A stretch of 32,000 bases of DNA from Microcystis aeruginosa NIES-843 (lineage in GTDB: Bacteria > Cyanobacteriota > Cyanobacteriia > Cyanobacteriales > Microcystaceae), in assembly GCF_000010625.1 (NCBI RefSeq), contig NC_010296.1, positions 1,050,001-1,082,000 of the forward strand. The letters run 5' to 3'. Under the pieces are notes generated by a model, which did no database searches, was not told the origin of the DNA, and was given only the letters and a program-made list of their open reading frames with translations. Position numbers and translations under genes: made by a program. Positions 5,015-27,464 of this stretch are shown in pieces; the first letter of the stretch is position 1, and each line of letters begins with the position of its first letter.

Positions 5015-5024
5015 GGTTTAATTA

Positions 5025-5237
5025 GGGTCTGGTGAAAAAGTTTTTCCTGGGGGTAGGGTGTGGGGTGTGGGGTGTGGGGTGTGGGGTTTTACTCATTTTC
5101 ATGTGGTCAATTACCTAATTTTCAGGAAAAAAGTCCAGGGATTTTCCCCCCAATCACTCCAAAGGTCGGCACTTTTTGAGGCAAAAAAAGTCTAAAAGCG
5201 TTATCCAACAAGGTTTTTAGATTTATTCAGCAAACCC
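5025..5237 (-). mobile_element. MITE family 1 copy (213 bp, 12-bp TIR GGGT(T/C)TG(C/G)TGAA, TA target duplication)
   Basis: Flanked by TA at 5023-5024 and 5238-5239. It contains a 5-unit GT(A/G)GGGT heptamer array (5053..5087). It is the reverse complement of the 19221..19432 copy along its full length by manual alignment. Confidence 0.8.
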
Positions 5238-5294
5238 TAATTAAATCCATCAGGGTGAGCCATGCTCACCCTAATCACCTTAACTAACAGGCAA

Positions 5295-6161
5295 TTAAAC
5301 GGCTGTCAGGGTTTTTTCTAGAAGTTGTCGGGGAGCTTGAACCAAACCACGACAGTGGATTTCCGCAGAATTATTGGGACTTTCAATCAGTTTAACTTTA
5401 TCTAATTCGGCTCCTAATTGGCGGATCCGTTCCCCTAATAGTTGAGCGATATGTAAGGCAATATTTTCCGCGGTGGGAACCACTTCGGCAAAGTAGGGAA
5501 TATCCTTATTTAAAAAAGTATGATCGAAGGGTTCTACTACCAATTCATCGATCGCTTTTTGTAAATCCCCTAGATCTACAATCATACCGGTGCGGGGATC
5601 GATTTCCCCCGCCACGGATACTTCTAGGTGATAATTATGGCCATGACCGTTTACCCTGGCGCATTTGCCGTAGATTTCCGAGTTTTGTTCGAGGGTTAAT
5701 TGCGGTAAAGCCAAACGATGGGCGGCGCTAAAATGGGTTTTGACGGTTAAAGTTGCTTCCATATCTTTTCCTTGATATTCTGCCCACAATTCGGGGTGTT
5801 CAAATAGTTGAATTTTGACTAATGGTAAATAGGGTGCTAATCTTTGCCAGATAACTCTAGCGATATTTTCTGTGGTGGGTAGGGTTTGCTGAAATTCCGG
5901 CCAGACTTGATTGAGATAGGAGTAGTCTAATTGACTGGTTATCTCTCGTTTAATTACCTGTTTCACGGTGGAGAGATTCTCCACCATGCCATAAAGATTG
6001 AGTTCTTTGTGTAGGGAGACATATAATTCGTAATTGTGACCATGACCGGGAAAACGGCTACCAAGACCAAAACGTCTTTGATTTTCGGCTTCGTCCCATT
6101 CTGGTAGATAATAGCGATGGCTGGCTGAAAACCTCGCTCGACGATTGATGATGCAATCCAT
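5295..6161 (-). CDS. Tandem-domain 6-pyruvoyl-tetrahydropterin synthase / QueD-like protein
   Basis: Two PTPS repeats are present: FSASHRY...PGHGHNYELYV and FSAAHRL...CARVNGHGHNYHLEV. Confidence 0.85.
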   Translation of the reverse strand: MDCIINRRARFSASHRYYLPEWDEAENQRRFGLGSRFPGHGHNYELYVSLHKELNLYGMVENLSTVKQVIKREITSQLDYSYLNQVWPEFQQTLPTTENIARVIWQRLAPYLPLVKIQLFEHPELWAEYQGKDMEATLTVKTHFSAAHRLALPQLTLEQNSEIYGKCARVNGHGHNYHLEVSVAGEIDPRTGMIVDLGDLQKAIDELVVEPFDHTFLNKDIPYFAEVVPTAENIALHIAQLLGERIRQLGAELDKVKLIESPNNSAEIHCRGLVQAPRQLLEKTLTAV

Positions 6162-6545
6162 AAATGTGGGGATCGATGACTTTGTAAAGTTACGTTAAGA
6201 GCAACTTTTTCTAGCATAAACCAGTTTTGTCTCCTCCGGCTTGCGGACCGGAGAAAGTTATCCCTCAATTCCAGCAGAATGCGATCGCTGTGAGTCGATA
6301 GTGAGAAAATTGGCGTTGCTGAATCAAGGTATGAATGCCAACCGTGCATCGTATCCAAAAGTTAGTTTGGGTCTAGGTTTTAAAAATCCCACAAAATAAG
6401 ATTCAGGTCTCAAATCAGCAAGGCCGAAAATCCCTTGACTATCAAACCCCCGATCAAGTATTCTACAAACATACTTCAGACTTCGTTGCACTTTAGATCT
6501 GAAGATCTGAATCGGCACTTTGTCAATGCGTAAGTACTATAATTT

Positions 6546-7580
6546 ATGGTCGAGCAAATACCTCCTATTTATTTTCATCTTCCCGCTTCCGATCGACCCG
6601 ACCCTTTGCCCGATCACGCCGATCAATTACGAAAGGGTCGAGGTTCATGGGCTTGGATTTTACAAACTTATTTGCGATTACGCGAATCGAACTTTCCCTG
6701 TGAATTAGTAGATACTATCCCTAAAGAAGGTATCGTAATTAGCCATAGAGTGTCGTTAGCTTATGATTTTCAACCCTATCCCAAGTTATTACTGGCTTGT
6801 GTTAAAGGAGATCGAAATCCTCAACCCTACGCTCAAATTCATATCGTCCAGAATCGACAGGAATTAACTGCTTCTCAACTTTATATACAATCAATAGCCG
6901 CAGATCAATATCTTTTACCTGGTAAGCGATACTTTTTACCCCATTGGACTCAACCGGGCTTAATTCCTCGCGATCCCCGACGGGGCGATCGGTTTGAAAA
7001 TGTAGTTTATTTTGGCATTACCTACAATTTAGCTCCCCCCTTACGCAAACCGGAATGGAAACAGCAGGTAGATCATTTAGGTTTAAACTGGTGCATTCAA
7101 ACTAATGATGAGTTTTGGCATGATTATCGTCAAGCAGATGCAATCGTCGCTGTTCGTTGTTTCGACTCCAAGGAGACTTATCCTTGGAAACCCGCCACTA
7201 AGCTGTATAATGCCTGGTTAGCAGGTGTTCCTGCCATTTTAGGAAATGAATCTGCTTTTCAAGCAGAGTACAAAAGTGAGCTAGATTTCTTTACTGCTAA
7301 TAATGAGAATGATATTATTTATTATCTCAAACAATTGCGGGACAACAATTATTTAAGGCAGCAAATAAAGTCTCATTATCAAGAAAGGTCGAAAACCGTG
7401 ACTATTAGCCATCTTGTTCAATGTTGGCATCAGTTTATCTTGAATGAATGTGTTCCCGCCTATAATCAATGGTGTTCCCTTTCTCTCTGGCAACAACAAC
7501 AGTTCTTTTTGCGTCGTCGTGTCCTGTCGAAATTGAATCAACTGCAAATGAAAACCCTGAAAATCATCACTGCTCAATAG
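6546..7580 (+). CDS. Conserved hypothetical protein (C-terminal half weakly glycosyltransferase-like)
   Basis: 344-aa ORF with ordinary codon usage. KPATKLYNAWLAGVPAILG resembles GT-B C-terminal motifs, but I cannot assign a family. Confidence 0.55.
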   Translation: MVEQIPPIYFHLPASDRPDPLPDHADQLRKGRGSWAWILQTYLRLRESNFPCELVDTIPKEGIVISHRVSLAYDFQPYPKLLLACVKGDRNPQPYAQIHIVQNRQELTASQLYIQSIAADQYLLPGKRYFLPHWTQPGLIPRDPRRGDRFENVVYFGITYNLAPPLRKPEWKQQVDHLGLNWCIQTNDEFWHDYRQADAIVAVRCFDSKETYPWKPATKLYNAWLAGVPAILGNESAFQAEYKSELDFFTANNENDIIYYLKQLRDNNYLRQQIKSHYQERSKTVTISHLVQCWHQFILNECVPAYNQWCSLSLWQQQQFFLRRRVLSKLNQLQMKTLKIITAQ

Positions 7581-7748
7581 CCAATGGTTCTCGGTGATTG
7601 CGGACAGTAATGTTTGAAGTCCTCTTTTTACCCAGTTTTTGGGGTAGTATTCACTTATCTCTCTTAGATGGCGACTCGTTACTGAGATTGACTTGGCACT
7701 TTTTTCAATTTTCTCAGAGGCACGCCAGGGGAATTGCTTTTTTACCAC
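7551..7748 (-). pseudogene. Possible decayed HicA-like toxin remnant
   Basis: The first ~66 aa of the 7353..7748 ORF (..EKIEKSAKSISVTSRHLRE...KRGLQTLLSAITENHWLLSSDDF) loosely follow the HicA pattern (LEK.G...GSH....G.L.sIL.q.g....F). The match is shorter than HicA, and the ORF reads through into the convergent gene. Confidence 0.3.
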
Positions 7749-7937
7749 TAAAATAAACTGTCTCTATCCAAATTCGCTCGCTTCTTCAATATTAATCATC
7801 ACTTCCTCTAAAGTTTCCCCCTGACTCATACATCCGGGTAAATCGGGAATTAATGCCGTGTATCCTCCTTCTTCTTCGGGATAAATTGAAATCGGATATT
7901 TAAGAGACAGAAAGTATTCTAATATTGGTTGTTCCAT
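7714..7937 (-). pseudogene. hicB: HicB-family (UPF0150) antitoxin-like gene, apparently frameshifted
   Basis: A 57-aa ORF at 7764..7937 (MEQPILEYFLSLKYPISIYPEEEGGYTALIPDLPGCMSQGETLEEVMINIEEASEFG*) lies below the track cutoff. The +1 frame continues WIETVYFSGKKAIPLACL*, completing the usual ..EEA.ELWIE...G..IP HicB pattern. GAATTTGGATAGAG looks like GAATTGTGGATAGAG minus one G. Confidence 0.55.
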
Positions 7938-7945
7938 CAATAGGT

Positions 7946-8449
7946 CTAAATAGGTCTAACTGAGTCGCCAATTTGAGGGTTTTCAAAAGGTAACGTTTCG
8001 GATAATTCCCGTACTAGCAGTTTATTTAACAATTCACGATTTATTAGCTCGGATATTGGCTTTTTATCGTTCTTAGAATTCGCTCCTACGGCTCTTTTTA
8101 AGAATTTTCCTATCAAATCGGACGGGGTTTCTTGTTCTTTAAGCAACAACTCCAGCAATCTAGATCCTTTATTATTGGCTCTATCCGATTGTAAAATCGA
8201 TATTTTTTCTTGAACAAAAGTAATTGTCCCCGTCCCTCTCACTAAGTCAAGATAGCCTAAAGACTCACCAGTCTGAGGATCTTTTATTTCCTCTTCACTT
8301 GTATTGTAAACTAACATTCTTTGACCTTCTCGAATTCCACTAATTTCACCTCTATTGATCACTAATTTATAGTCGTCAATAACTTTGACAACTTTGGCGG
8401 GAAAGGTTCCTTTAGGAGATAAAAGGGTAGTTTCTGTGACGTTTTCCAT
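7946..8449 (-). CDS. Unknown protein, paralog A of a duplicated pair (conserved N- and C-termini, variable centre)
   Basis: 167 aa. The first 89 aa are 70/89 identical to the 8977..9483 product by my count, the last 15 aa are 12/15 identical, and the middle is unalignable. Confidence 0.75.
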   Translation of the reverse strand: MENVTETTLLSPKGTFPAKVVKVIDDYKLVINRGEISGIREGQRMLVYNTSEEEIKDPQTGESLGYLDLVRGTGTITFVQEKISILQSDRANNKGSRLLELLLKEQETPSDLIGKFLKRAVGANSKNDKKPISELINRELLNKLLVRELSETLPFENPQIGDSVRPI

Positions 8450-8710
8450 AATGATTTATCTTTGGTATAAATCTGGTTAATATTAAATATTATCGCTCTT
8501 AGGGCGCAATAGCTATAATTTAAACTTATATTTGTCAGGATTTAATGATAAGGTCGGTCAATTGCCTTGATCATTAATAGTACCAATGTAGGAGCGATGT
8601 ATTGTAACTGCAAAAAAGGGGTTAAGCGTGATAATTTCTTAATAAATTCAAAAAATTGGTATGATAAAATGCTAGAATGAAGGGGTAAACATAACTTAAA
8701 CGAGGGTGTT

Positions 8711-8872
8711 ATGGTAAAAAAATACTATCGTGACATTTCTTCCCAAAATTACTCTATTCCTAGACGGTACTTTATGGATGGTCTGGTCTCTGTTCTAGAT
8801 ATAGGGGGGACTTATCGTGCCAATCTAGATTATCGTTGTCGTGTTCGTGTGGGCAAAAAAGTAGTAAATTAG
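8711..8872 (+). CDS. Possible small basic protein (53 aa), function unknown
   Basis: ATG preceded by GAGGG at 8702-8706 (a 4-nt spacer, short for an SD). Sequence is MVKKYYRDISSQNYSIPRRYFMDGLVSVLDIGGTYRANLDYRCRVRVGKKVVN*, followed by the hairpin GTCGGGTT-N10-AACCCGAC. It is below the track threshold. Confidence 0.25.
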   Translation: MVKKYYRDISSQNYSIPRRYFMDGLVSVLDIGGTYRANLDYRCRVRVGKKVVN

Positions 8873-8976
8873 TAGGTCGGGTTGAGGCTACGAAACCCGA
8901 CAACCCGACAGAAACCCTCTTAATCCTTTTTTTGCTGAATAAAATGCACAACTGGACTAATTTTTGATTATAACGA

Positions 8977-9483
8977 TTAAATAGGCTTGACTAGATCGCC
9001 AACTTGAGGATTTTCAAACGGTAGTCTTTCTCCTAATTTATCAATCATTGATTTTAACTCTCTTTCTCTATTTGATTGTAACTCTTTCTTTGCTAAGTAT
9101 TCAATTCCAGAAGGAGTCAAGGGAGGGATATAAGATAATTCAGACAATTCTCTAGGTTTCTGCAAATATTCTACGACCAAATAAGAAAGTTTATTTAAAT
9201 CTATGTCTGGCTTTTTGTCTGATTCTATAATAGATATTTTATCTTGAACAAAAATAATTCTTCCCGTACCTCTTACTAATTCGAGAAACCCTAAAGATTC
9301 GCCAGTATGCGGATCTAATATTTCTTCGTCATCGATACGATAAACCATCATTCTTTGACCTTCTCGAATTCCGTTTTGTTCACCTCTATTCATTACTAAT
9401 TTATAGTCGTCAATAACCTTAACGACAGTGGCAGGAAAAGTTCCTTTGGGGGATAAAAGGGGAGTTTCTGTGACGTTTTCCAT
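8977..9483 (-). CDS. Unknown protein, paralog B of the duplicated pair
   Basis: 168 aa. Shares N-terminal (MENVTET.LLSPKGTFPA.VVKVIDDYKLV.NRGE..GIREGQRM.VY) and C-terminal (LPFENPQ.GD.V.PI) modules with paralog A. GAGGTAG lies upstream, and the gene starts 8 nt after the upstream gene's stop. Confidence 0.75.
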   Translation of the reverse strand: MENVTETPLLSPKGTFPATVVKVIDDYKLVMNRGEQNGIREGQRMMVYRIDDEEILDPHTGESLGFLELVRGTGRIIFVQDKISIIESDKKPDIDLNKLSYLVVEYLQKPRELSELSYIPPLTPSGIEYLAKKELQSNRERELKSMIDKLGERLPFENPQVGDLVKPI

Positions 9484-9491
9484 TTCTACCT

Positions 9492-10043
9492 CTATGGTTG
9501 ATTGTATTTCTTAATAACGCTCGGACTAACTCTAGTTTGTTGCATAACTTTTAAATCATTGTTGGCCAGTTTATCTAAAATATATTGATAGGTTATTTTT
9601 GGTTCATCGATCACCACTTGAATTCGTTTCTTATTATTGATAGACTGGACGAATCCTACTCCTATCAACCTCTCGAAATCATCTTCATCTGTATAATACA
9701 AAGATATCATAGATTGAGCGGCGAATAAATCTGATGCTTCCAGTAAGCATTCAATATTATTGTTTGCGTCCTTTTGAACTCGCAATATCTTAGGAATCAT
9801 ACTCTGTTTCATTTTAGCGTATTCTTCTAAAGCTTTTTCCAAAGCTCTAACCAAGGTAGCGATTATCAGTAAAGATAAAGTCACGATGATGATTAGAAGA
9901 TACAAAGGAACTGATGCCTTACTAGCCACTACAGCCAGTAAAATCGAAATGGCATAGGATAGAATCGTCAAAATCGAGTTGTTGACTTCTCTAAAACTAG
10001 ACCAAATTAACCCCCAAAAGTTATTTTTCATCTTTTTTGACAA
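9492..10043 (-). CDS. Two-TM membrane protein with unknown cytoplasmic C-terminal domain
   Basis: 183 aa. Two hydrophobic helices (ILTILSYAISILLAVVA, VPLYLLIIIVTLSLLIIATLV) precede a ~100-aa soluble domain. Tightly coupled to paralog B. Confidence 0.65.
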   Translation of the reverse strand: MSKKMKNNFWGLIWSSFREVNNSILTILSYAISILLAVVASKASVPLYLLIIIVTLSLLIIATLVRALEKALEEYAKMKQSMIPKILRVQKDANNNIECLLEASDLFAAQSMISLYYTDEDDFERLIGVGFVQSINNKKRIQVVIDEPKITYQYILDKLANNDLKVMQQTRVSPSVIKKYNQP

Positions 10044-10076
10044 CTCAAGAGACCGGTAATTAGCCAGTCTCTCAAG
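10044..10076 (-). other. Imperfect 13-bp stem-loop between the chlH stop and the next gene's start
   Basis: On the minus strand CTTGAGAGACTGG-CTAATTA-CCGGTCTCTTGAG forms 13 pairs including 3 G-U. No U-tract follows; AAAAAAG-ATG of the 183-aa gene does. Confidence 0.4.
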
Positions 10077-10091
10077 TCTTATCTATCTATT

Positions 10092-13000
10092 CTACTCGAT
10101 TCCTTCGATGCGGTCCTCCACTTCTTGATAAAGTTCCTGTAAGCGGTCTAAATTCTCTTGAGAAGTTTCCCAGTAACCGCGACCATTAACTTCTAGCAGG
10201 GTTCCCACCATCTTGCGGAAAGAATTAGGATTGAGATTCATCAGACGCTGACACATTTCCTCATCTTGAATAAAGGTGGTGTTGACATCTTCATACACCC
10301 AATTATCCACCGCATCAGCAGTTGCCGACCATCCCATGGTATTAACCAAACGCTTCGATAATTCTCGGACTCCTTCGTAACCGTGACTTAACATTCCCTC
10401 GTACCATTTGGGATTGAGTAACTTGGTGCGGGTATCCAAGCGCACGGTTTCCGATAAAGTACGCACCTGAGCGTTAGCGGTGGTAGTATCGGCAATATAG
10501 GCCGCCGGTTTTTTGCCATCATCGCGCAAACTAGCGACAACTTTGGTGGGATCCGAGTCGAAATAGTGGGAAACATCGGTTAAACTAATCTCGCTGGAAT
10601 CCAAGTTTTGGAAAGTTGCCTCCGCAGTTTTTAAAGATGCTTCAAACAACTGACGATTATCGGCCATCATCCCAGGATTATCCGAGTCGAAAGCAAAACC
10701 CTTGCGGTTGAGATACATATTCTGTAACTCTTTTTCATCTTCCCAACTGCTATTTTCCACCGCGAGATTGATATTAGAAGAATAGGAACCGGAAGCATTA
10801 GAAAAGATGCGGGTGGCTGCCTGTCGAACCGTTAAACCCATTTCTTTTGCTTGTTCCATAGCGTGTTTACGGACATAATTCATCTCCATCGGTTCGTTTG
10901 CTTCCGCAGCCATTTTTACGCCTTGGTCAAGCAAGTTCATCTGATTGATAAATAAATCCCGGAAGACACCAGAACAGTTGACCACCACATCAATGCGCGG
11001 TCTTCCTAACTCCTCTAGGGGAATCAATTCCAATTTATTCACCCGTCCCAAAGCATCGGGAAGAGGACGAACCCCCACCATCCAGAGAATTTGTGCTAGG
11101 GATTCCCCATAAGTTTTGATATTATCCGTTCCCCAGAGAACACAAGCGATGGTTTCGGGATATTTACCGCCATTATCCAGTTTTTGCCGTTCTAACAGGC
11201 GATCCACCACGATTTTAGCCGATTTTACCGCCGCTAGGGTCGGGATAGACTGGGGATCTAAAGCGTGGATATTTTTACCCGTCGGTAAAACTCCGGGGTT
11301 ACGGATGGGGTCGCCACCAGGACCGGGAAGAACGTATTCCCCTTCCAATGCTTTTAATAGGGCCCCTAATTCATTATCAGCACAGACCTGTTCTAAACAG
11401 AATTCTAGGTATTCAAACAGGGGTTTTAATGCGACCGGATCAACTTTTGGATAACCCATCTCCTGTAAAGTTTCGATCCAAGGCGATTTCTTGCCTATAT
11501 TCAAGAAATTCAGCTTAGAAAGCATCGATACCCGACCTTCCGCGTCGGTTTGGGACTTGACTAAAGCGGCAACGGCAGCGCGAGTCCCTAGGGTGATGTT
11601 TTGCAGTAATTCCACATCCTCTAACACCCCTCGATCGCTATTGCGATAAACTTCCTCTAGATCCCGGCCGATGCTGTTGGCAATAATCCGGGGTAAGGAG
11701 AGTAAATCGTCTTCTTCCCGGTCTAAACTGGCAATATTGACCAAAGTTGCCACCGCTTCGAGCGCTGAGGGGGGTTTCCCGATAACGTGAAGTCCGCAGG
11801 GAAGTAAACGCGATTCAATTTCCATCAGTTTACGATAGACCGAACCGACAATATTATCCCGTTCCTCTTGACTGAGATGGGCGGTATCAACATCAGGTAA
11901 ACTTATATCTTTGTCAAGATTGACTAAGAAACATTTATCGACAATGGTATTGACAATTTGCACCCCACGCCCACTATCTTTCAGGGTTTGGTAGGAACCG
12001 ATCAACTCGCTTAGTTCTTTTAACCCTTTGTAGAGTCCGGCATTTTCTGCGGGGGGAGTGAGATAGGAGATGGTTTCCGCATAACTGCGACGTTTAGCGA
12101 TCGTCGCTTCGCTGGGGTTATTAGCGGCATAATAGTAGAGGTTGGGAATCATCCCGATGAGGTTATCGGGGTAGCATTCTCCAGACATTCCCATCTGTTT
12201 CCCCGGCATAAATTCTAGGGAACCGTGGGTGCCAAAATGAAGAACCGCGTCTGCTTTCCAGACTTGATTGAGATAGGTATAGTAGGCTGCAAAACCGTGG
12301 TGGGGACTAGCAGAACGAGAAAAGAGCAGACGCATGGGATCCCCCTCATAACCGAAGGTAGGTTGAACCCCAATAAAGACATTACCGAATTCTTTGCCGT
12401 AGATTAATAGATTTTGTCCATCACTGTTGAGGTGTCCCGGTGGTGGTCCCCAATTTTCCTCTAAACGGACGGAATAGGGGGTTAAACGCTCGTATTCAGG
12501 TACAGACATCCGATAGGCGATATTTAGCTCCGGACTATGGTATTGTGCTTGAGCATCATGGATCACCGCTTCCATCAGTTCTTTCGGAGATGCGGGTAAG
12601 TCCTGCAAGTCATAACCATTATTTTGTAACGCTTGCATCACCTCGTAGATAGAACCGAACACATCTAGATAGGCTGCAGTTCCCACATTCCCTTTATCGG
12701 GGGGGAAACTAAAGACCGTGATGGCGACCTTTTTATTCAGTTTCGGTTTCTTTCTTAGGTTAGCCCATTTTAGCGCCCGTTGAGCGATCGCTTCTACCCG
12801 ATCCTGTAAAGCGATCGCTTTACCCGTGGCCCCATCCCGGCCCGATAAGATAATAGGTTCGATCGCACCGTCTAATTCCGGAATAGCAATCTGTAGCGCC
12901 ACTTGAATCGGGTGTAAACCTAAATCGCTTTCTTCCCATTCCTGGGTGGTTTGGAAAACTAGCGGTAACGCGCACATATAGGGACGATTGAGACGTTTTA

Positions 13001-14078
13001 AGGATTCTATCGCTTTCGGGTGATCTTGTCGCGCTGGACCTCCCACTAAAGCAAATCCCGTCAGGGAAATTACTGTGTCAACGATAGCAACCGCTTCCAC
13101 TCCTTTTAAGCTTTTATCCCAGAAGTATTCTTCTACCGGTTTAGAAAAATCTAATCCCCCAGCAAAAACGGGAAGGACTCGCGCACCCATAGACTCGAAT
13201 TCCTGCACGAGAGCGACATAATGAGCGTCATCACCAGTAACGAGGTGAGTTCTCTGTAAAATTAAGCCAACACAGGGAGCCAAGGGGTCTTTGAGGTCAT
13301 CGGCAATATCACTGCGGTTATTGTACCAAGTGAAGTATTCCTTGACATCCTCGAACATTTTCATGGATAAAGGATGCCAGATACCCAGATCCGGATAAAC
13401 TACCGGTTCTTTGTAAACTACGCTGTCATCTTTGTTGTCGAAGACGTACTTATCGGCCAACATTAACAGGAAGTTCTCTAAATTTTCTGCGGAACCTCCT
13501 AGCCAATACTGGAAACTTAACATAAAGTTGCGTGCGTCCTGAGCTTTTTCCATGGGGAGGTATTTCAGGACTTGCGGTAAGGTTCGCAATAACTTTAACA
13601 TCGCATCTTGGAAACCAGCGCCAGAGTTTTCCCTGCGCTTTTTCATAAAATTAGCGATGACACTCTTAGACTGTCCCAATTGTGCCATAGAAAAGCTGCC
13701 TAACTTATTTAAGCGCATTACCTGGGGCATAGAGGGAAAGACAATCGCCGCGTCTAATTGATCCCGATGGGGACTGACAGCGGCCACGACTTTATCGGCT
13801 AAATCTTCGATAAAGATGAGAGATGCAATGAAAATATTAGCTTTGGCTACATCCTCCTGAAAATTGCGATAATTTTCCCCATCGCGCAGTTCTTCGATTA
13901 AATAACCACTAATTTCGATCGCTAGTTTTGGGTTGTTAGAGTTGATTTCCCTGACGGCACTACTCAGCGCACTTTGGTACTGAGGTTCTAGCACGACATA
14001 GACCACCTTGACCAGCGATCGACCATTCAACGCGTCGGGAACTATGTGACGAATGGTGGACTTGACGTGAGTGAACAT
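10092..14078 (-). CDS. chlH: Magnesium chelatase subunit H (protoporphyrin IX Mg-chelatase large subunit)
   Basis: 1328-aa ORF with the size and sequence typical of ChlH/BchH (CobN family), e.g. [15 protein letters not shown] and [17 protein letters not shown]. Confidence 0.97.
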
Positions 14079-18105: not shown

Positions 18106-18225
18106 TAAGTAGCTGGTTATAATTAAATTAAAAATGTATTTTAGGTTCGATCCCCCCTTCCCCCCTTGATAAGGGGGGTGCCGATAGGCGGGGGGATCTG
18201 GTAGTTTTTAACCCCTACCTACTTA
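18106..18225 (+). mobile_element. MITE family 2 copy (TIR TAAGTAGCTGG / CCTACCTACTTA) with G6/C6 hairpins
   Basis: Near-identical to 24519..24671 in the same orientation. The interior is GATCCCCCCTTCCCCCCTTGATAAGGGGGGTGCCGATAGGCGGGGGGATC. Confidence 0.75.
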
Positions 18226-18309: not shown

Positions 18310-19221
18310 GTGATAAACCCTATTATTTTCAGTAATCGATCGACAATGTTTTTTAATTGGATAACTTTACCCTATTTATTAATTAATCCTGTTTTAATTC
18401 CCTTGAGTATAGCTCGATCGGAAACTATTCTTGTTCAAGAAGTCAGCGATCCTAATTATCAAAAACTGGTGCAGTACGCCCAAAATACACAACTCGATCG
18501 CCTAGCCATGGCTGATATAATCCAGAATATGGCCACTCAATTTTTAGGAGCAAAATATCAAGCAGGATTACTCGATCGCTCTCCTACAGAAAAATTATTT
18601 ATCTCTTTAAAAGAGTTTGATTGTGTCCTCTTTGTGGAAACAGTTCTCGCTTTGAGTCACAATTTTGCTTTAAAAAATTATCAGTATTCTGCTTTTAGTC
18701 AACAGGTTTTAAATCAACGTTATCGCCACGGTATTCTCGACGGTTATTGTAGTCGCCTGCATTACTTTTCCGATTGGATTAATGACAACCAAAAACGAGG
18801 CAATCTAGAAAATATTACTCACAAATTAGGAGGAATTACTCTTGACAAAAAGCTCAACTTTATCAGCAAAAACCGCCATCTATATCCCCAGTTAAAAACT
18901 CAAAGTAATTACCATTGTATTCAACAGTTAGAACGGCAATTAGAAAGCTTATCCTTAACCTATATTCCCACCGCTAAGATTAAAGATATTTATCCACAAC
19001 TGCAAGCTGGCGATATTATCGGTGTCGTGACTAATATCGCTGGTTTAGATACCACCCATACCGGTCTAGTTTATCGCTTTGCCGATGGCAAAATTGGCTT
19101 AATTCATGCCTCTCCTGCTGGTCAAGTTACCATTGCTAAAGACCTAGAAAAATATATCACTAAAGTGGACAAAGCCATCGGTATTTTTGTCGTTCGTTCC
19201 CTTGATCCAAGAAATAGGTAG
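18310..19221 (+). CDS. DUF1460 / N-acetylmuramoyl-L-alanine amidase-like domain protein (probably secreted)
   Basis: FDCVLFVETVLALS and SRLHYFSDWINDN match my memory of DUF1460. The true start may be the ATG at 18346 (MFFNWITLPYLL..., signal-like). Confidence 0.6.
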   Translation: MINPIIFSNRSTMFFNWITLPYLLINPVLIPLSIARSETILVQEVSDPNYQKLVQYAQNTQLDRLAMADIIQNMATQFLGAKYQAGLLDRSPTEKLFISLKEFDCVLFVETVLALSHNFALKNYQYSAFSQQVLNQRYRHGILDGYCSRLHYFSDWINDNQKRGNLENITHKLGGITLDKKLNFISKNRHLYPQLKTQSNYHCIQQLERQLESLSLTYIPTAKIKDIYPQLQAGDIIGVVTNIAGLDTTHTGLVYRFADGKIGLIHASPAGQVTIAKDLEKYITKVDKAIGIFVVRSLDPRNR

Positions 19222-19432
19222 GGTTTGCTGAATAAATCTAAAAACCTTGTTGGATAAGACTTTTAGACCTTTTTGAAATCCAAAAGTGCCTGGCATGGGA
19301 GTGATCAGGGGGAAATTCAGGTACTTTTTCCCTGAAAATTAGGTAATTGACCCCCTCAAAATCGGTAAAACCCCACACCCCACACCCTACACCCTACACC
19401 CTGCTTCTAGGAAAAACTTTTTCAGCAGACCC
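19221..19432 (+). mobile_element. MITE family 1 copy (212 bp, TIR GGGTTTGCTGAA / TTCAGCAGACCC, TA duplication)
   Basis: TA at 19219-19220 and 19433-19434. The first G of the element completes the TAG stop of the upstream gene. It contains an ACCCCAC/ACCCTAC heptamer array at 19370..19404. Confidence 0.8.
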
Positions 19433-19491
19433 TAGGTAGATAGGGAGCGAGGGCAGCAGAAAAAAATTGTGGTTCCACCCTATTGTTCATC

Positions 19492-20667: not shown

Positions 20668-20722
20668 TTTTTAATCAAGAGTTAAAGAGATTTGGGAGGG
20701 TAGGGATTTGGGAGGTTAGGAA

Positions 20723-20764
20723 GTGGGGTGTGGGGTGTAGGGTGTGGGGTGTGGGGTGTGGGGA
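20723..20764. repeat. GT(G/A)GGGT heptamer tandem array, 6 units
   Basis: GTGGGGT GTGGGGT GTAGGGT GTGGGGT GTGGGGT GTGGGGA. The same heptamer is arrayed at 5053..5087, 19370..19404 (complement) and 26930..26992. Confidence 0.9.
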
Positions 20765-20793
20765 GAATAAAGCTGACTCCTGACGACCGACTC

Positions 20794-20891
20794 CTGATAA
20801 CTGATAACTGATCACTGATAACTGATAACTGATAACTGATAACTGATAACTGATAACTGATAACTGATAACTGATAACTGATAACTGATCA
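20794..20891. repeat. CTGATAA heptamer tandem array, 14 units (12 CTGATAA + 2 CTGATCA)
   Basis: Counted directly: 98 nt between the rcp1-like stop (20896) and the downstream REC-HK start (20667). Confidence 0.95.
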
Positions 20892-20895
20892 TGAT

Positions 20896-21342
20896 TCACT
20901 CCCCGGGTAAAGTAGCGGTTTCTAACCAAAAAGCCTCGATATTTTTGACAATTTTGAACAAATCGTTGAGATTGCGCGACTTGGTTATATAACAATTAAC
21001 GTGCAGTTCATAGCTATAAAAAATATCCTCCTCGTTGCGAGAAGTGGTTAAAACCACCACAGGAATTCTTTTTAAACTGGGATCGTTTTTTATTTCCGCT
21101 AATACCTCCCGTCCGTCTTTTCTGGGTAAATTCAGATCGAGAAGAATCAGATTAGGACGGGGAGAATCGAGATACTCCCCTTCTCGACGCAGATAATCCA
21201 TGGCGTTGACACCATCCCTAACGATAACTAATTCGTGCGGGACGGTGCTAGTTTTTAATGCCTCTTGGATGAGGCGAATATCAGCTTTGCTGTCCTCCAC
21301 TAATAAGATAATTTTGTGTGGCACGTCCTCGCCAGCGCTCAC
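20896..21342 (-). CDS. rcp1: Single-domain response regulator, Rcp1-like (phytochrome partner)
   Basis: REC domain (ILLVEDSKADIRL..., LILLDLNLPRKDG, VVVLTTS, CYITK). I prefer the GTG at 21342 (AGGAGG at 21351..21356, 8-nt spacer) to the track's GTG at 21351, which abuts the SD. Confidence 0.85.
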   Translation of the reverse strand: MSAGEDVPHKIILLVEDSKADIRLIQEALKTSTVPHELVIVRDGVNAMDYLRREGEYLDSPRPNLILLDLNLPRKDGREVLAEIKNDPSLKRIPVVVLTTSRNEEDIFYSYELHVNCYITKSRNLNDLFKIVKNIEAFWLETATLPGE

Positions 21343-24518: not shown

Positions 24519-24671
24519 TAAGTAGCTGGTTATAATTAAATTAAAAATGGATTTTAGGTTCGATCCCCCCTGCCCCCCTTGATAAGGGGGGTGCCGATAG
24601 GCGGGGGGATCCCCCCTTAATCCCCCCTTAATAAGGGGGGCATCTGACAACTTTTAACGCCTACCTACTTA
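24519..24671 (+). mobile_element. MITE family 2 copy (153 bp, carries an internal extra CCCCCCTTAAT... unit)
   Basis: Same termini and core as 18106..18225, with an added CCCCCCTTAATCCCCCCTTAATAAGGGGGGC segment. Confidence 0.75.
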
Positions 24672-26831: not shown

Positions 26832-26929
26832 AATTGTTGGTCTGGAAGGGTGGGTAATCTGTATCTTTTACTACCCTAACCCAAATCCCCGACCATCTAT
26901 CCGGGCGATCGAACGCCGGAGCTTTTTCA

Positions 26930-26992
26930 GTGGGGTGTAGGGTGTGGGGTGTGGGGTGTGGGGTGTAGGGTGTGGGGTGTAGGGTGTAGGGA
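26930..26992. repeat. GT(G/A)GGGT heptamer tandem array, 9 units
   Basis: Counted directly. It lies about 100 nt upstream of the prlC start and generates the spurious HPTPHTLHPTP ORF on the minus strand. Confidence 0.9.
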
Positions 26993-27464
26993 AAGAAACC
27001 TCTTTCATCTGTGGGGGTGAAAATTTTTTCATTGGGACTGCCTCTGTTGATCAAAGATAAGCAAAAATTATTTATTGACTGCAAAAACTTGAGAATATTT
27101 AAATTAACATTCCGCAATATTTACAAATTCTTAAGAATTAATTGAGAAAGATTTTTATTTAACAACGATGTTACAAGGGTTACAGCGATTTGATAGAATT
27201 TCACAATGGGTTATTCTGTGCTTTTTTGGGCAGCAATGGTTGAAACCCTTGCCACACCTAGAAGGTGATCCTAATTAAGACGGTCAAATCAGTCAATTTC
27301 ACCCATAACGATGATCTTTTTTTTGTGTAGTTTTATTGCAAAAAAAAAGTTTTTTTGACAAAAAGCACAAAGTATGATAGTACCCAACGTATTTCTGGCT
27401 GCGAGTAATTATTGTAGAGGGGGAGAAAGGAGAAGGGAGAGGGGAGAATAAATAAAAATAATCT

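Follow-up and report, generated by a model that had tools for sequence, protein, structure and literature searches.

Two-gene cassettes that pair a cytoplasmic sensor with a membrane protein are known from lambda, where rexAB lies beside cI, and from Sbash, where gp30/gp31 are expressed from the prophage (PMC6426596). DUF4747 is present in RexA and gp30, and each of RexB and gp31 has four transmembrane (TM) helices (PMC6426596). In fold, the nearest described proteins are FlgT and TsaP, which are exported to the periplasm, are 340–410 residues long and form rings round the flagellar basal body or the pilus secretin. Here we describe a small module that can be compared with both, in a stretch of 32,000 nucleotides (nt) from Microcystis aeruginosa NIES-843 (NC_010296.1, positions 1,050,001–1,082,000; ‘the window’ below means this whole stretch). 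Behind chlH, a gene for a membrane protein with two TM helices is followed by two genes for small barrel proteins, copy 1 and copy 2, which differ in their centres (Table 1). By analogy with the Rex-type cassettes, the module may be an undescribed Rex-like phage-exclusion or abortive-infection system, a reading to which we give a probability of roughly 40%. Direct support exists for the conserved gene pair, for the fold and the split barrel, for the swapping of cassettes by recombination and for the occurrence of relatives in prophage lysogeny modules.

Fold of the barrel proteins

Both small proteins consist of a single FlgT_C/TsaP-like barrel that is split before its last strand by an insert. 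In the AlphaFold2 (AF2) model of copy 1, built with 70 homologues, the barrel strands occupy residues 18–88 and the last strand, residues 164–167, has a predicted local distance difference test score (pLDDT) of 96. The intervening residues contain two helices within 96–150, and helices are predicted in the centre of copy 2 as well. The first-pass annotation of this DNA, made from the letters alone, had proposed one domain built from the N- and C-termini with a helical insert between them. Three observations agree with that proposal: the AF2 model, a better Pfam match once the centre is deleted, and natural variants with centres of only 10–15 amino acids (aa) (P0022, P0064 and P0086). Structure prediction covered the window proteins, and most family members have short centres.

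Foldseek places FlgT (3W1E, 8Z5N) at the top of the matches to the barrel model, with E about 1e-4, together with TsaP and the barrels of MreC. The TM-scores are low (0.34–0.39 on the query) because only the barrel part aligns. Structural matches in BFVD are small uncharacterised phage proteins labelled FlgT_C or pilus ring, and the family profile A1 finds TsaP by sequence (E 1e-4). TsaP is also a weak PDB match of the barrel proteins in plain sequence searches. Against the FlgT_C family (PF16538; Pfam gathering cut-off 27 bits), the window copies score 17.3 and 17.8 bits, and 21–22 bits when their centres are deleted in silico; the match then grows from positions 3–63/64 to positions 3–76 of 77, with an E-value ~10–30 fold better. 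Only two distant family members, P0107 and P0119, pass the cut-off (27.4 and 27.5 bits). On these scores the window barrel proteins look like a remote relative of FlgT_C and not a clear member. The earlier remark that no family could be recognised is slightly too strong given the weak FlgT_C relationship. No known defence, toxin-antitoxin (TA) or housekeeping family was matched by the module proteins in scans of Pfam, NCBIfam, PHROGs and PADLOC. The NCBIfam scan of the window proteins returned sub-threshold noise alone (eIF2-gamma, ArlJ), and the only PHROGs match, a weak one, was to phrog_27728, whose function is unknown (E 7e-6). Inspection of the barrel protein N-terminus, MENVTETPLLSPKGTFPA, reveals no hydrophobic signal segment; lacking a signal peptide, the barrel proteins should therefore be cytoplasmic.

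The two copies share 70 of 89 identical residues at the N-terminal end and 12 of 15 at the C-terminal end, exactly as first counted, and their N-terminal coding parts form a direct DNA repeat of 266 nt with 82% identity (8184–8449 and 9218–9483). Their centres do not align, again as first described. The Smith-Waterman local score is 24, against 26.0 ± 4.8 in 2000 shuffles, 67% of which reach 24, and BLASTP crosses the two centres only by gaps. The same holds across the family, where centres that differ in sequence and in length (10–65 aa) sit on near-identical barrels: ~110 family proteins fall into 51 centre clusters, and one barrel cluster (at least 88% identical) bears seven unalignable centres. 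The hypervariable, swapped cassette of the first reading is thus a family-wide feature, and the homologues are neither single-copy nor invariant in their centres, nor do they match a housekeeping family.

The membrane partner

The AF2 model of the membrane protein (pLDDT 79) has helices at residues 5–15, 20–35 and 43–78 and strands at 82–144 and 166–170. From the N-terminus it comprises an amphipathic helix, a TM hairpin, a helical linker and a β-barrel domain, the last modelled at pLDDT 88–93; hydropathy agrees with the model on two TM helices. In the barrel domain E120 and G126 are near-invariant, and the C-terminal strand has the pattern V-[KR]-P (alignments A2 and A3). Foldseek against the PDB returned no significant match for the model, only marginal ones (the Upf1 barrel at E 3e-3, and nanobodies). 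Paralogy between this barrel and that of the partner was considered and dropped, since hhalign of A1 against A2 gives a probability of 4%. The TM/coiled-coil part weakly matches DivIC and LapA, and members of the database clusters are named ‘hypothetical’, ‘bZIP transcription factor’ or ‘FtsL’; the latter two labels we regard as spurious because of the coiled-coil linker. A two-TM hairpin puts both ends of the protein on the same side and there is no export signal, so the topology is most likely N-in/C-in, with the barrel domain in the cytoplasm. All homologues begin with MKNNFWG, and the real start is therefore probably the ATG at 10031; the reading frame first annotated at 9492–10043 exists, and its length becomes 179 aa instead of 183.

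The TM hairpin is an allelic cassette in its own right. When the gene is compared with other Microcystis loci, the blastn match is lost exactly at 9992–9817, between flanks that are 95–96% identical. Against the protein at locus L001, identity is 13/13 over aa 1–13, 19/59 (32%) over aa 14–72 and 98/107 (92%) over aa 73–179. Microcystis has at least three hairpin alleles and also an optional 18-aa coiled-coil extension.

Distribution and genomic context

An exhaustive HMMER search recovers 2,613 clusters of the barrel family at 50% identity with E <= 1e-3, 983 with E <= 1e-10; the typical length is 120–140 aa. Of 47 species-level genome loci, about 40 have a TM gene directly upstream of the barrel gene and on its strand, and the stop codon of the TM gene is often adjacent to, or overlaps, the start of the barrel gene. 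Whether the two genes always co-occur had been raised as a check on the first reading: they do so in most loci, not in all. The pair is found in at least eight phyla, with representatives in the cyanobacteria, Clostridia, Negativicutes, Proteobacteria, Myxococcota, Leptospirae, Acidobacteriota, Latescibacterota and Aerophobetes. Pair-bearing taxa include Clostridium, Lachnospiraceae, Acidaminococcales, Rhodoferax and Polyangiaceae, and further Leptospiraceae, Terriglobia, Latescibacterota, Syntrophobacterales and Aerophobetes.

Judged by the sequences of their neighbours, the Firmicute pairs lie within prophage lysogeny modules. The neighbours in Clostridium and Lachnospiraceae are a serine recombinase, HTH_3 plus ImmA/IrrE, a CI-like helix-turn-helix (HTH) plus S24 protein and Bro-N; at one Acidaminococcales locus the tested neighbour is a CI-like HTH plus S24 repressor. 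The temperate Lacticaseibacillus phage P7.1 carries a TM/coiled-coil gene and then a barrel gene between repressor/ImmA and integrase, opposite the lysis genes. In 22 viral contigs from IMG/VR the pair mostly lies within 4 kb of a contig end. Taking these contigs and P7.1 together, the pair shares its strand with CI-like repressors in 15 of 23 loci and with integrases in 10 of 23. In 14 contigs the viral partner clearly belongs to the TM family, and in most of the others a different open reading frame (ORF) with one or two TM segments overlaps the barrel start.

The cyanobacterial gene order is conserved and runs chlH, TM gene, barrel gene, HicB-like gene. chlH is the upstream gene in 23 cyanobacterial loci from several orders, and by motif scan ~33 cyanobacterial species genomes carry the barrel family. 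In Pannus brasiliensis (L008) an orthologue with the type-B centre of copy 2 is the sole barrel copy and adjoins the TM gene.

Cassette exchange and selection in Microcystis

Within Microcystis the locus is a mosaic with one or two barrel copies, set against about 96% identity in chlH. The window strain combines centre A (168 aa) with centre B (167 aa), the lengths being those of the whole proteins. L002 has A′ and B, and L001 has A and C (133 aa). Three loci (L003, L005 and L010) carry D (136 aa) and C as a close tandem without a spacer, L004 and L006 have a single copy with centre C, and L007 has D and a truncated copy (L007_2). Centre types number four or more, and recombination has joined them to different barrel alleles: that of copy 1 is found with A, C and D-like centres, that of copy 2 with B and C. 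Tandem duplication of the barrel gene is seen in Microcystis only. A degraded barrel copy, reduced to two short ORFs, was also observed at a second locus of Microcystis sp. LSC13-02 (L047:398-703), in an unrelated context far from chlH and in a genome that has an intact locus as well.

Comparison of copy 1 between the window and L002 locates one exchange. Synonymous divergence (dS) is 0.89 in the barrel and 0 in the centre and C-terminus, which places a recombination breakpoint at the junction of barrel and centre. The copy-1 centre, common to L001 and L002 at dS = 0, differs from that of L002 by eight nonsynonymous changes, no synonymous ones and one codon indel, and the changes cluster in helix 1. 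Copy 2 differs from its L002 counterpart by one nonsynonymous and one synonymous change. Between Microcystis and Pannus, the ratio of nonsynonymous to synonymous divergence (dN/dS) is 0.30 in centre B and 0.06 in the barrel; this conservation across genera means that inserts are functional elements and not free linkers. Within centre types the nonsynonymous:synonymous counts are 13:4, compared with 31:31 in barrels (Fisher p = 0.06), from tests that are under-powered at 4–6 DNA sequences per centre type. The diversifying selection proposed at first therefore has a nonsynonymous excess within types in its favour, which is suggestive only, and one centre type under net purifying selection against it.

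Centre type and TM allele are uncoupled: hairpins of the window type occur with either A or C as the centre, and centre A also accompanies the L001-type hairpin. This suggests that the insert recognises something other than the TM partner.

Proposed function and alternatives

Three features lead us to the exclusion or abortive-infection reading: the conserved pairing with a membrane protein, the position in lysogeny modules and the shuffling of cassettes within a species. Low GC content and strong within-species polymorphism were also counted in its favour. We infer that the two proteins interact, that they act as sensor and effector, and that their function is anti-phage. In such a system the sensor or adaptor would be the barrel protein, docked on the cytoplasmic domain of its membrane partner, with the insert as the surface that recognises an invader-specific cue and so sets specificity. 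Once the cue is recognised, the two-TM partner would change state and either compromise the membrane or block entry, and a second copy with another insert would extend recognition to a wider range of invaders. More tentatively, the family as a whole may be a widespread, undescribed two-component exclusion family, carried by Firmicute prophages, domesticated behind chlH and scattered in at least eight phyla, with a barrel sensor bearing a swappable insert and, in Microcystis, a polymorphic immunity locus. There, inserts and membrane hairpins would be shuffled by recombination at the conserved flanks of the barrel, and tandem copies would widen the spectrum of cyanophages excluded. The structural part of the first-pass annotation is right and valid for a large family; its functional part, which likened the pattern to specificity or immunity-type modules, is plausible and unproven.

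Several points weigh against exclusion. The stable chlH position and the genomes that keep the barrel gene alone are the main difficulty for a defence function. The cyanobacterial module lies outside any prophage or recognisable defence island and is fixed behind a housekeeping gene in several orders, which looks like long vertical inheritance and is unusual for defence genes. In two Oscillatoria loci (L029, L032) and one from Pleurocapsales (L033) the barrel gene comes straight after chlH without a TM gene, and in Aphanothece (L028) the TM gene is split into two fragments (these exceptions lie around 5300–6400 of each locus). The two-component logic is accordingly not obligatory, and the barrel protein may work without its TM partner. 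Neighbours in non-Firmicute heterotrophs are ordinary (YchF, LysR, ornithine decarboxylase), as expected of a self-contained inserted module, and a place in lysogeny modules is compatible with other lysogen-expressed functions too. Positive selection on the centres is suggestive, not significant. Literature searches found nothing on the family and no published description tying it to defence. PADLOC-DB v2.0.0, which dates from 2023 and does not cover later systems, has no match to the three window proteins; 60 relatives gave weak matches for single members only, mostly to TM-effector models.

Alternatively, the pair could be a toxin-antidote module, in which the two-TM protein is a membrane-damaging toxin that the barrel protein neutralises by binding its cytoplasmic domain. 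As happens in polymorphic toxin-immunity arrays, extra barrel copies would then serve as orphan antidotes or spares, and the variable parts would co-evolve to keep pairs cognate. The tight operon with adjacent or overlapping stop and start fits this, as do tandem extra copies of the second gene only, swapped variable segments in both genes, the presence of the module on prophages and the TA genes clustered just downstream in cyanobacteria (HicB-like, HigB/HTH_37 and HicA/HicB). Cognate pairs would, however, not be expected to show a centre type uncoupled from the hairpin allele, and the likely docking site, the cytoplasmic domain of the TM protein, is the conserved part. Nor do the module proteins match a toxin or antitoxin family, and a putative toxin gene in first place, as well as the gene sizes, would be atypical of type II systems. 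The barrel genes that lack a TM gene do fit orphan antidotes, with no sign of the reverse. We consider this explanation unlikely, and rate no higher a housekeeping or accessory membrane scaffold, whether linked to ChlH and chlorophyll or to envelope and division functions like MreC or DivIC, with the centre as a drifting linker. Such a scaffold would suit the one-strand synteny of chlH, TM and barrel genes in the 23 cyanobacterial loci, the likeness to the ring-forming barrels of FlgT, TsaP and MreC, the weak DivIC and LapA matches, and centres that tolerate shrinkage to 10–15 aa. It is at odds with the same pair occurring in non-phototrophs and prophage lysogeny modules, with a motif scan that finds only those ~33 cyanobacterial species genomes, with pseudogenised or missing TM genes among the cyanobacterial loci, and with low GC combined with extreme within-species polymorphism. 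Drift in place cannot explain centres that are unalignable within a species at ~96% chlH identity, and a centre B conserved across genera is no free linker.

A narrower proposal concerns only the second copy. Copy 2 and the spacer might be the decaying leftover of a duplication or recombination accident, leaving the TM gene and copy 1 as the working unit. Copy 2 has no obvious ribosome-binding site and stands behind the AT-rich spacer, the adjoining HicB-like gene is truncated, the second copy L007_2 is truncated and the second locus L047 degraded, and single-copy strains (L004, L006) exist. We nevertheless think decay very improbable: the copy 2 ORF is intact and near-identical both in L002 and in a 173-member cluster across many Microcystis assemblies, and its Pannus orthologue, alone beside the TM gene, has diverged under purifying selection in barrel and centre alike.

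If phage exclusion is the function, the pair would represent a new and very compact family of prophage-encoded ‘sensor plus membrane effector’ systems, in which a barrel scaffold with an exchangeable insert would make specificity easy to test by cassette swapping. Host-phage dynamics in bloom-forming Microcystis are poorly understood, and the chlH-linked locus, being easily typed, would offer a way to track strain-level phage resistance. Whatever the function, the analysis describes a general design, a conserved small barrel with a hypervariable insert and recombination breakpoints at the junctions, and places about 2,600 clusters of ‘hypothetical’ proteins in a context.

Layout of the module and its surroundings

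The three minus-strand ORFs lie where first annotated (Table 1), and both gaps between them, of 8 nt (9484–9491) and 527 nt, are exact. The upstream ORF had been taken for chlH and is a full-length match to ChlH; about 50–60 nt separate it from the membrane-protein gene on the same strand in the window. The module is AT-rich, as judged by eye before: its GC content is 34.9%, compared with a window average of 41.8% and with 46.7% in chlH. The idea that the window holds a prophage remnant was considered and rejected, the flanks being chlH and conserved chromosomal genes that are colinear at 94–96% identity in other Microcystis strains.

Table 1. Coordinates of the module, its parts and its neighbours in the window
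Feature	Position	Strand	Basis and remarks
chlH, Mg-chelatase H subunit, upstream neighbour	10092..14078	minus	PDB 4ZHJ, E=0 over 1-1328
2-TM membrane protein gene	9492..10031	minus	179 aa from ATG at 10031; ORF list extends to TTG 10043 (183 aa)
Variable TM-hairpin cassette, membrane protein aa 14-72	9816..9992	minus	blastn and protein identity against other Microcystis loci
C-terminal barrel domain, membrane protein aa 82-170	9522..9788	minus	two family alignments and AF2
Barrel protein copy 1, 168 aa, centre type A	8977..9483	minus	ORF; AF2 pLDDT 85
Centre (insert) of copy 1, aa 90-153, 64 aa	9025..9216	minus	predicted helices 96-107 and 124-150
Spacer separating the barrel genes, 527 nt, AT-rich	8450..8976		hairpin near 8880-8915
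Barrel protein copy 2, 167 aa, centre type B	7946..8449	minus	ORF; near-identical cluster of 173 Microcystis sequences
Centre (insert) of copy 2, aa 90-152, 63 aa	7994..8182	minus	unalignable with centre A
HicB-like/UPF0150-like ORF, 58 aa, 3′-truncated	7764..7940	minus	PF15919, E 2e-10; 5 nt past copy 2

The spacer is kept in L001 and L002 and partly in L004, and is missing from the strains with closely spaced tandem copies (L003, L005 and L010). It contains the hairpin GTCGGGTTTCGTAGCCTCAACCCGAC (GTCGGGTT..AACCCGAC). A 27-nt piece of this sequence is found 100% identical and in the opposite orientation in other Microcystis strains, and could represent a terminator or a small mobile repeat. 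An Rfam search of window positions 7000–10500 gave no match. Promoter-like and terminator-like sites do not exceed the shuffled expectation, and the module may be driven by read-through from chlH or by a promoter of its own.

The first-pass annotation saw a decayed hicBA module downstream. A truncated HicB-like ORF is indeed present, scoring 41 bits against PF15919, above the 27-bit cut-off; it is a conserved orphan gene, without hicA in the window. A tblastn search of the whole window with two cyanobacterial HicA proteins found nothing better than E 1.3. The ORF lacks a DNA-binding domain and is 58 aa long, compared with 75–89 aa in orthologues, and a full-length homologue aligns at 7937–7728 across the stop codon. 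Past the stop, the coding sequence for the lost C-terminus can still be made out (window 7728–7940, minus strand). In 17 cyanobacterial loci HicB-like orthologues of 62–126 aa (mostly 62–100) follow the barrel gene without hicA, usually at 8–60 nt. Other TA pairs are sometimes inserted between the genes of the cyanobacterial order (HigB/HTH_37, HicA/HicB); the HicA/HicB pairs of L025 and L030 are insertions in their own right.

Repeats occur elsewhere in the window. Arrays of the heptamer GGGGTGT and its complement lie at four places (5034–5100, 19370–19402, 20697–20777 and 26904–26998). Two of them fall inside an inverted repeat pair of ~210 nt (5023–5239 and 19219–19434, 84–86% identity) that looks like a dispersed repeat or a family of miniature inverted-repeat transposable elements (MITEs). 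A tandem array of about 18 units of CTGATAA (20773–20898) adjoins a GGGGTGT array, and the same heptamer recurs at 1201–1225. A direct repeat of 93 nt with 98% identity (18106–18225 and 24519–24671), followed by a second shared piece of 36 nt, holds a C-rich/G-rich hairpin, CCCCCCTT...GGGGGG, and is probably a MITE-like element present twice.

Comparison with known systems

With FlgT and TsaP (PF16538; 3W1E, 8Z5N, 6VE2, 3JC8) the window proteins share the β-barrel fold and the motif ‘vinrG..dGi..G....vY......DP.TGe.LG ... GD.V’. Unlike these exported proteins, the barrel family is stand-alone, 113–169 aa long and without a signal peptide, and has its insert before the last strand. Its genes are paired with one for a small inner-membrane protein, in prophages too. 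No flagellar or pilus genes were found near barrel loci, where the neighbours are chlH, the two-TM gene and the HicB-like gene, or prophage lysogeny genes.

The arrangement also recalls polymorphic toxin-immunity and orphan-immunity arrays, in that a variable gene precedes tandem paralogues with conserved ends and swapped internal cassettes, and recombination at conserved flanks yields new combinations. It differs from them in that neither a toxin domain nor a secretion signal or delivery system can be recognised in the module. The first protein varies in its TM hairpin and not in a C-terminal toxin domain, and the centre is uncoupled from the upstream allele.

A short two-TM hairpin protein beside a soluble partner is reminiscent of the SLATT-type and other two-TM effectors of CBASS, DRT and Pycsar systems. 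One divergent prophage partner from IMG/VR (L065:5577-5990) matches the PADLOC model of a reverse transcriptase (RT)-associated SLATT protein (E 4e-6) and, more weakly, a CBASS 2TM effector, gop and a second SLATT model. This single match covers TM segments only and may reflect composition; the window protein and 59 other relatives have no match, and no cyclase, RT or nucleotide-sensing domain lies near the module. We treat this thin link to pore-type defence effectors as a lead, not evidence.

The sensor-activates-membrane-effector logic proposed above is taken from the RexAB and Sbash systems (PMC6426596). The module is not a member of the RexAB family: the window proteins have no Pfam match to DUF4747 at E <= 1, and the membrane protein has two TM helices, not four. 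It combines a FlgT_C-like soluble barrel with a two-TM protein that has a barrel domain of its own, places the membrane gene first, and has no sequence relationship to RexA/RexB. What it shares with RexA/RexB and Sbash gp30/gp31 is the two-gene cassette of a cytoplasmic and a small membrane protein. A further likeness, to lambda rexAB, is one of position, in that relatives of the module adjoin a repressor within a lysogeny module, whereas the window locus itself is chromosomal, behind chlH.

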